This document shows positions 2,100-2,532 of a stretch of 6,146 nucleotides of DNA, piece after piece. The position numbers and the translations under genes are program-made. The DNA comes from Escherichia coli. GTDB lineage: Bacteria; Pseudomonadota; Gammaproteobacteria; Enterobacterales; Enterobacteriaceae. The stretch is from the NCBI RefSeq assembly GCF_003334355.1, contig NZ_QOWP01000067.1; one strand, given 5' to 3'. Position 1 is the stretch's first letter, and each line of letters starts with the position of its first letter. The notes under the pieces were generated by a model, which ran no database searches, was not told the origin of the DNA, and saw only the letters and a program-made list of their open reading frames with translations.

Positions 2100-2310
2100 C
2101 CGTAAGCCGGTACCGCTCGCCGCAGCCGAACGACCGAGCGTAGCGAGTCAGTGAGCGAGGAAGCGGAATATCTCCTGTATCGCATATTCTGCTGACGCGC
2201 CGGTGCTGCCTTTTTTCTCCTGCCACATGAAGCACTTCACTGATTTTCGCAATCGTGGCAACATAGTAAGCCAGTATACACTCCGCTAGCGCTACATGAC
2301 TGGTTCAGGG
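2100..2310. other. bom/oriT-like region of ColE1/p15A type (nic site not mapped here)
   Basis: Strong similarity to the ColE1/p15A/pBR322 segment downstream of the origin as recalled: 'taccgctcgccgcagccgaacgaccgagcgtagcgagtcagtgagcgaggaagcgga', 'ctcctgccacatgaagcacttcactga', 'taagccagtatacactccgcta'. Confidence 0.55.
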
Positions 2311-2359
2311 CTGCGCCCCGAAACCCGCTAACAACCTCTCAGCTACTGGATATCACCCC

Positions 2360-2509
2360 ATGCCATCTGAATATGATGAACAACTGGATTCGACTGATAC
2401 GCAGCTTCCCGGCGAATATGACCTTTTTGATTTAATGGCGCAGGTTACTGAAGAGAACCTGCATGCCCCTGTGGATTTTGGGTCGCCTGTCGGCCGGGAA
2501 GCGTTATAG
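2360..2509 (+). CDS. Hypothetical small acidic protein (49 aa; MPSEYDEQLDSTDTQLPGEYDLFDLMAQVTEENLHAPVDFGSPVGREAL)
   Basis: Open frame ATG 2360 to TAG 2507-2509, too short for the ORF track; no clear Shine-Dalgarno; no family recognised. Sits where ColE1 plasmids carry mob genes. Confidence 0.2.
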   Translation: MPSEYDEQLDSTDTQLPGEYDLFDLMAQVTEENLHAPVDFGSPVGREAL

Positions 2510-2532
2510 CTTTTTCGCTTGCCCGCGTACGT

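Follow-up and report, generated by a model that had tools for sequence, protein, structure and literature searches.

The DNA examined here, a stretch of 6,146 nucleotides from Escherichia coli (contig NZ_QOWP01000067.1, assembly GCF_003334355.1; hereafter the window), carries a ColE1-type origin of transfer (oriT, or bom) followed on the plus strand by a short open reading frame (ORF), ORF49, whose 49-residue acidic product is related to the C-terminal tail of the antitoxin MazE. Bases 1-77 of the window recur at its end, and the window thus represents one circular unit of 6069 bp. Two E. coli plasmids of 6069 bp in the databases, NZ_LT985307.1 and NZ_CP038387.1, are 100% identical to the whole unit, and its backbone (window 315-4772) shows 100% identity to p9123-type plasmids of 6222 bp and to pCERC1. 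It carries the ori, oriT, ORF49, exc1 and truncated colicin-like gene of the p9123 family together with sul2 and ISVsa3/ISCR2, and is structurally no different from other members of the p9123/pCERC1 family, its sul2-ISVsa3 configuration being the form regarded in the literature as the precursor. Hosts of this plasmid family include E. coli, Shigella, Salmonella, Klebsiella and Citrobacter. The p9123 backbone has been assigned by Branger et al. to a relaxase-negative 'RelN-RNA type 1 / p9123' family (PMC6807383).

A conserved ColE1-type oriT without relaxase genes

The oriT core lies at 2262-2337 on the minus strand, where 70 of 77 positions (91%) are identical to ColE1 1455-1531, and it forms part of a longer blastn alignment between window 1457-2337 and ColE1 594-1531 (74% identity over 947 alignment columns, E=9e-156). 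It is also about 89% identical to what we take to be the bom sequence of pBR322. The bom/oriT-like sequence that an earlier sequence-only reading of this DNA had described is therefore real, but the range given for it, 2100-2520, was too wide: the core falls inside it, whereas 2100-2260 is ori-distal sequence of the ColE1 replicon. The core adjoins the ColE1/p15A-like oriV region (RNAII, origin and ori-distal sequence; 1457-2261, plus strand, by blastn to ColE1) about 200 bp past the origin region. RNAI, the antisense copy-number regulator of the ColE1-type replicon, is encoded at 1509-1610 on the minus strand (Rfam RF00106, 73.9 bits against a gathering threshold of 47, E=1e-12), which places RNAII and the primer on the plus strand, heading rightwards to oriT and ORF49. 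RNAI was the only RNA family found by Rfam in the whole window, and none was found in 2100-2700.

The nick is presumed to lie in the bottom strand between 2270 and 2271 (5'-CTGG/CTTA-3' on the minus strand), by assumed correspondence with ColE1/pBR322. In an alignment of 14 sequences from relaxase-less relatives, the mean pairwise divergence was 0.080 in the oriT core, 0.22 in the ori-distal region and 0.371 in 2201-2261, the roughly 60 bp that flank the presumed nick towards ori. The third codon positions of the adjacent ORF49 gave a value of 0.145 and served as a local near-neutral yardstick; since the core falls below it, this non-coding sequence is constrained. The divergence among relatives drops abruptly from about 0.37 to about 0.08 at the presumed nick (the 2262-2270 boundary), and such a sharp step is expected there if the relaxase recognises sequence located 5' to the nick on the minus strand, which is the nicked one.

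The same reading had stated that the unit contains no mbe or mob genes, and both searches bore this out. In tblastn of all ColE1 ORFs of at least 60 residues against the circularised unit, MbeA (533 residues), MbeB, MbeC, MbeD and Rop gave nothing better than E=0.08, and Exc1 was the sole ColE1 ORF with a counterpart. NCBIfam scans found no relaxase among 16 ORFs of the unit and named only Sul2 and the ISCR transposase, the weaker matches being those of ORF49 to MazE and, below threshold, of Exc1 to a helix-turn-helix model. The two named proteins, encoded by sul2 (356-1171, minus strand) and the ISCR/IS91-family transposase gene (4367-5860), are also the only two ORFs longer than 200 residues. 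The unit thus lacks the mbeA relaxase gene and the mbeB, mbeC and mbeD genes of a self-mobilisable ColE1 plasmid, and corresponds instead to a 'pOriT', that is, a homologue of a verified oriT without relaxase and without mating-pair genes. Typing of the family by PLSDB/MOB-suite agrees in returning 'mobilizable' with no relaxase listed. An oriT without a relaxase is an arrangement already known, both for the p9123 family and in general: only some 39% of ColE1 plasmids have a relaxase gene (PMC8683028), and oriT-only ColE1-like plasmids have been described under the name 'pOriT' as hyper-parasites of mobilisable plasmids (bioRxiv 10.1101/2022.07.04.498229). Natural ColE1-type plasmids of E. coli carry oriT cores about 95% identical to the present one over 65-74 nt, with rop and mobC immediately downstream in one plasmid and rop, mobC and mbeA in pEC14-3, and natural helper plasmids with a matching oriT therefore exist.

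ORF49 and the C-terminal tail of MazE

ORF49 runs from ATG to TAG at 2360-2509 on the plus strand, where the sequence-only reading had placed a small acidic ORF, and encodes 49 residues with 12 D/E against 1 K/R and a pI of 4.05. This is its maximum length, because an in-frame stop lies 19 codons upstream with no alternative start between. A non-homologous leader of 17 residues precedes a MazE-type tail (residues 18-49, GEYDLFDLMAQVTEENLHAPVDFGSPVGREAL; 2411-2506, plus strand), recognised from identities to MazE tails and from profile matches. By tblastn the peptide is conserved as a full-length ORF in 544 plasmid records (about 84-100% identity) and, as protein, in 111 clusters; below about 84%, the matches consisted only of the C-terminal 31-43 residues of annotated AbrB/MazE/SpoVT antitoxins. 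The NCBIfam MazE model likewise placed ORF49 residues 20-47 on profile positions 53-80 of 82 only, and a profile of 46 ORF49 family members matched residues 50-78 of PDB 7d2n chain E, an AbrB/MazE protein of 80 residues (7d2n_E, E=0.006). Among 1.84e9 representative proteins, positions 17-49 of the profile aligned to the extreme C-termini of AbrB/MazE proteins of about 80 residues. Examples of these (P0120, P0121, P0130, P0133 and P0145 in our protein set) start with the typical AbrB motif KKWGNSPAVRIP, and the four that were scanned all score as MazE in NCBIfam. The closest full-length relative of ORF49, P0120, is a 79-residue protein of the Pfam family MazE_antitoxin, is followed by a PemK_toxin gene and ends in GEYELDDLIARITPENLHKESDFGAPVGKEAL, which is 66% identical to the ORF49 tail over 32 residues; a MazE tail from an IncN plasmid is 58% identical to ORF49. 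It is in these C-terminal 32 residues that the toxin-binding tail motif, EY-L--L---VT-ENLH---DFG-PVG-E-L, is found. On the IncN-X1 plasmid LC771586.1 (1351-2720), the mazE with the most ORF49-like tail is separated from mazF by two ORFs of 180 residues (starting at the last mazE base) and 85 residues, both membrane-protein-like, an unusual split of mazEF.

The remainder of a toxin-antitoxin (TA) module was searched for and not found. The AbrB DNA-binding domain (PF04014) was not detected in ORF49, no AbrB-like translation occurs in any upstream frame, and the domain was present in none of the 17 longer family members inspected; ORF49 can therefore neither bind DNA nor autoregulate. No MazF/PemK toxin gene or remnant was found in the unit by tblastn with two MazF proteins (best E=0.36), and none is annotated next to ORF49 in the related plasmids whose neighbourhoods were inspected, so that ORF49 cannot be an addiction module. 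Pfam returned no match to ORF49 even at E<=10, nor did PADLOC. Together, sequence comparisons indicate that ORF49 is very probably an orphan relative of MazE reduced to its tail. Compared with the MazE of mazEF, it shares the toxin-binding tail, of which a C-terminal peptide alone inhibits MazF in vitro (MazEp), but lacks the N-terminal swapped-hairpin domain for DNA binding and dimerisation as well as an adjacent toxin gene, and has instead an unrelated 17-residue leader and a place beside oriT on high-copy plasmids.

ORF49 is already known as a sequence, and its public annotation is loosely MazE-like. The suggestion that it might be an unannotated small protein holds only in part: RefSeq records call it 'hypothetical protein' or carry the misleading label 'AbrB/MazE/SpoVT family DNA-binding domain-containing protein', which its sequence does not support as there is no AbrB domain, and Branger et al. 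list it as 'MazE TA system', read as plasmid-stabilising (PMC6807383). The latter designation is not supported either, as both a toxin and a DNA-binding domain are missing, and without a toxin in cis ORF49 cannot stabilise the plasmid through post-segregational killing. Database forms of 58-84 residues were considered as true full-length MazE proteins and rejected, since they result from deletion fusions, from frameshifts, from extension after loss of the stop codon or from read-through into oriT. ORF49 is not alone in being a tail-only relative of MazE: P0118, P0135, P0158, P0162, P0169 and P0171 are others, 48-54 residues long, and in one clear case no toxin gene lies downstream.

Neighbourhoods of ORF49 were fetched from diverged small plasmids and contigs (about 1.2-10 kb) of Salmonella, Klebsiella, Citrobacter, Enterobacter, E. 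coli and metagenomes, and the order ori, oriT, ORF49, hairpins was found in every one inspected; in several of them, rop and ORF49 share a strand. The annotations of these relatives list no relaxase, some of the records being unannotated or only partly fetched. At a coverage of at least 80%, 253 of the 5426 complete E. coli genomes contain the oriT-ORF49 block. Of 1359 member sequences, at least 1145 are strictly intact 49-residue forms as judged by a conservative pattern, and the remainder includes many intact point variants.

Selection was assessed on 14 distinct alleles from parsimony changes on a neighbour-joining tree. The tail (codons 19-49) had 29 synonymous and 22 nonsynonymous changes against an expectation of 73% nonsynonymous (omega about 0.28, p=5.5e-6), whereas the leader (codons 2-18) had 10 and 25, respectively, against an expectation of 72% (omega about 0.98, not significant). 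Pairwise omega among the first 10 alleles agreed, with values of 0.18 (tail) and 0.98 (leader), and tail divergence was 0.145 at third positions and 0.053 at first and second positions. In these alleles purifying selection acts on the tail while the leader evolves neutrally, and since the changes were counted within an already truncated family, this constraint is younger than the truncation. It was also considered whether an antisense ORF might have caused the codon-like pattern, and this was discarded, as no minus-strand ORF of at least 30 residues overlaps 2264-2900. The Phe/Ser change at codon 40 (2477-2479) recurs at least three times on the tree.

The replacement cassette and the rest of the unit

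Homology to ColE1 ends at window 2337 and resumes at 3165-3259 (ColE1 3844-3939, the cer region). In ColE1, oriT is followed by rop, mbeC, mbeA, mbeB and mbeD, with exc2 just past cer; here an unrelated cassette of about 830 bp stands in place of the rop-mbe-exc2 block, and ORF49 indeed occupies the place where mob genes were expected, that of rop and mbeCABD. The rop-relaxase region lies between oriT and cer, and recombination at these two sites has been proposed before (cited in PMC8683028), which fits the cassette swap seen here. The block 2270-2700 (oriT, ORF49, both palindromes described below and 2646-2692) is conserved among relatives, and the flanks on both sides vary. Such a mosaic is consistent with modules having been exchanged through recombination at oriT and cer.

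Beginning 24 nt past the ORF49 stop, a terminator-like hairpin (GGTAATACTCCGGTATTACC and a T-run; 2533-2562, plus strand) was identified by consensus scan; its GTAATAC/GTATTAC arms are kept among relatives and its loop varies. A repeat search revealed a second palindrome with the same half-sites at 2591-2607 (TAATACCCGGGTATTAC), which is present in relatives with a variable centre and could be a protein-binding site or an RNA hairpin. The two palindromes (2533-2552 and 2591-2607) lie 56 bp apart, start to start, and share the half-sites GTAATAC and GTATTAC; although the first is terminator-like, the shared half-sites suggest a candidate protein-binding site instead. Further along, about seven tandem 11-bp repeats (TACATCACTT followed by A or T; 2830-2926) have a 32-nt direct repeat at either end (2820-2851 and 2895-2926). 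This region is unannotated in every record and measures 466 bp here and 444 and 509 bp in relatives, as if copy number changes, and there is no rep gene for which the repeats could serve as iterons.

The right-hand limit of the cassette is a cer-like multimer-resolution site (3165-3259, plus strand; 71% identity by blastn to ColE1 3844-3939), with an Xer core, GGTGCTGATAA-CAGATG-TTATGGTAAAT, at about 3230-3257 and a central region of 6 bp. The XerD arm is identical to that of ColE1 cer, a site with a central region of 8 bp. Another candidate for the cer site, 2646-2692, was dropped in favour of 3165-3259, which aligns with ColE1 cer and has the exact XerD arm. The stretch upstream of the cer-like core (2951-3165), of which small plasmids of Klebsiella show wide conservation, is probably accessory sequence of this site.

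Beyond the cassette, the ColE1-derived backbone carries the exc1 homologue (3276-3764, minus strand; by tblastn), whose product appears to combine a helix-turn-helix with a coiled coil and is 60% identical over 144 residues to ColE1 Exc1 (3294-3725, E=9e-55). It is not a mobilisation protein and is annotated as 'entry exclusion protein 1' in NC_005862.1. It also matches the NCBIfam model rep_pAB02_ORF2, an Acinetobacter 'plasmid replication DNA-binding protein' (E=3e-11, below the model cut-off), as well as a helix-turn-helix model in PADLOC, and from its sequence it looks more like a DNA-binding protein than like a membrane exclusion factor. Next, at 3850-4323, comes what is left of a colicin-type operon. 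Its promoter region (3850-3927) corresponds to the ColE1 cea promoter (5048-5133) and has two LexA-box-like sites at about 3865-3897, and under this cea-like promoter lies a glycine-rich ORF of 129 residues (3934-4323) that ends at the ISCR2 junction. This ORF belongs to no Pfam or NCBIfam family and gave only a weak match to a cyanovirin-N repeat (E=0.0024), so that it is not a standard colicin. Short ORFs across ori are labelled 'replication initiation protein' in several public records (CP037998.1 463-1067; ColE1 784-942, the RNAI/RNAII region); this label, like the 'DNA-binding domain-containing protein' sometimes assigned to ORF49 by PGAP, looks like an annotation artefact.

Proposed roles of oriT and ORF49

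The best inference for the movement of this plasmid, drawn from the comparisons above and in line with the sequence-only reading, is mobilisation in trans by a co-resident MbeA-type plasmid. The oriT at 2262-2337 would act in cis as a transfer origin, nicked by an MbeA-type (MOB_P5/HEN) relaxase with MbeC from the co-resident ColE1-like plasmid, and the mating apparatus of a conjugative plasmid would then export the nicked strand, which would make the plasmid a 'hitcher of a hitcher'. The site is homologous to ColE1 oriT and pBR322 bom (MOB_P5/HEN) and sits in the same place just downstream of a ColE1-type oriV. Like pBR322, the plasmid has an oriT without mob genes and would depend on MbeA/MbeC in trans and on a conjugative plasmid, but unlike pBR322, an engineered deletion, it is a natural plasmid in which rop-mbe-exc2 has been replaced by ORF49, the palindromes and the 11-bp repeats, not simply removed. 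Plasmids of the NTP16/pCERC7 type are also small and ColE1-like and have kept an oriT for which another plasmid provides the relaxase; theirs, however, is an R64-like oriT accompanied by the NikA accessory protein, whereas the present plasmid has a ColE1-like oriT and no relaxosome protein.

For ORF49, it is proposed that the protein represents, as a stand-alone unit, the acidic C-terminal tail by which MazE wraps and silences MazF/PemK RNase dimers. A 23-residue C-terminal peptide of MazE (MazEp) is sufficient to inactivate MazF, according to the summary of Li et al. in PMC3281143. ORF49 would be translated, as suggested by its orientation in the direction of RNAII read-through and by the terminator-like hairpin after it, and would act in trans as a disordered peptide binding a MazF-family toxin encoded elsewhere, candidate targets being chromosomal mazF or chpBK, or the mazF/pemK of a large plasmid. 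Such binding would dampen the activation of the toxin, from which both host and plasmid would profit. That ORF49 is translated and selected is considered reasonably probable; neutralisation of a toxin in trans, argued by analogy, is more tentative and falls somewhat short of an even chance. More doubtful still is its extension into a mini-antitoxin, in which a MazE tail without DNA-binding domain, supplied from a high-copy replicon, would soak up the MazF/PemK toxins of chromosomes or large plasmids in an anti-addiction or anti-defence role. Orphan antitoxins, anti-addiction modules and phage counter-defence genes resemble ORF49 in being toxin-less on a mobile element and in presumably neutralising a toxin encoded elsewhere, but the known examples are full antitoxins or enzymes, whereas ORF49 is the binding tail alone and its target putative. 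Neither its description as an orphan or as a toxin-binding tail only, nor its constant place beside oriT in the relaxase-less ColE1-like plasmids inspected, nor the tail-specific purifying selection was found stated in the searchable literature.

Taken jointly, a trans-mobilised oriT and an ORF49 that acts in trans as a toxin-binding MazE tail offer the best explanation of the locus, to which we would give an even chance. Several points weigh against it. No sigma-70 promoter is predicted in 2050-3300 and no Shine-Dalgarno sequence is evident before the ORF49 ATG, so that expression of ORF49 is putative, read-through transcription from RNAII, in the same direction, being possible. Frameshifted, stop-loss and fused variants of ORF49 exist, mostly as singleton clusters. 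The selection test was small (14 alleles), and recombination gives homoplasy in the parsimony tree. Codon 40, the counterpart of the putative aromatic anchor in MazE tails (Trp73 in the E. coli protein), encodes Ser in most alleles and Phe in that of p9123, full-length relatives having mostly Phe or Trp. For oriT, no mobilisation experiment on the p9123/pCERC1 family was found in the searchable literature.

The main rival explanation treats ORF49 as a fossil without function: a mazE 3' end that remained when mazEF was lost by deletion or recombination, and that is kept by linkage to the selected oriT in a young, recombining block. The missing promoter and ribosome-binding site, the neutral leader, the circulation of frameshift and stop-loss variants and the F40S change, which removes the putative aromatic anchor in most alleles, would all be natural in such a fossil, and the block 2270-2570 is highly conserved throughout, coding or not. 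A fossil should nevertheless not show a deficit of amino-acid changes confined to the tail and arising within the truncated family, nor the excess of third-position divergence, and the great majority of the roughly 1360 member sequences retain an intact ORF; this explanation is held to be unlikely, if worth serious consideration. It is less probable again that the oriT is a dead relic on a plasmid that is non-transmissible by conjugation and spreads by transduction, transformation, cointegration or clonal descent. Branger et al. do class the family as 'non-transferable/relaxase-negative' (PMC6807383), one ORF49 plasmid is typed as non-mobilizable by MOB-suite, and mobilisation data are lacking in the searchable literature; yet the core is several-fold more conserved than its flanks and more than synonymous sites across diverged relaxase-less plasmids, the family extends over five enterobacterial genera, and helpers with a near-identical core and mbeA exist in E. 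coli.

A further possibility is that 2346-2560 acts as DNA or RNA, either as an extended relaxosome or accessory-protein region of oriT or as a terminator of RNAII read-through, the ORF being incidental. The region adjoins oriT and leads into the conserved hairpin and T-run, and its non-coding neighbours are as conserved as ORF49. On the other hand, neither a three-base periodicity of substitutions nor a tail-specific homology to MazE in unrelated organisms would be expected of such an element, the ColE1 homology including the functional oriT stops at 2337, and no Rfam family is found there; we regard this as improbable. The earlier suggestion that ORF49 is a remnant of the ColE1 mobilisation genes, for which only its position at the rop/mbeC/mbeA site and its orientation along the mbe operon speak, is refuted at the sequence level, as ORF49 has no similarity to MbeA, MbeB, MbeC, MbeD or Rop and a clear similarity to MazE tails instead.

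The p9123 family carries sul2, strAB, dfrA14, tet(A) and AmpC genes worldwide. With respect to oriT, the present analysis has little discovery value and restates how relaxase-less ColE1 plasmids are thought to move. If, on the other hand, the tail-only peptide neutralises MazF-type toxins in trans, about 5% of complete E. coli genomes would carry a high-copy anti-toxin, and ORF49 could disturb plasmid addiction, stress or phage responses that depend on MazF, and antimicrobial ideas that target TA systems. With a mini-antitoxin of this kind, the host might escape post-segregational killing by the same conjugative or helper plasmids on which the small plasmid would hitch-hike. Enne et al. reportedly described in 2004 that p9123 confers a fitness benefit when no antibiotic is present, and the mini-antitoxin could be behind this effect as well; with tail-only proteins such as P0118 and P0162 elsewhere, it would be a recurrent architecture.

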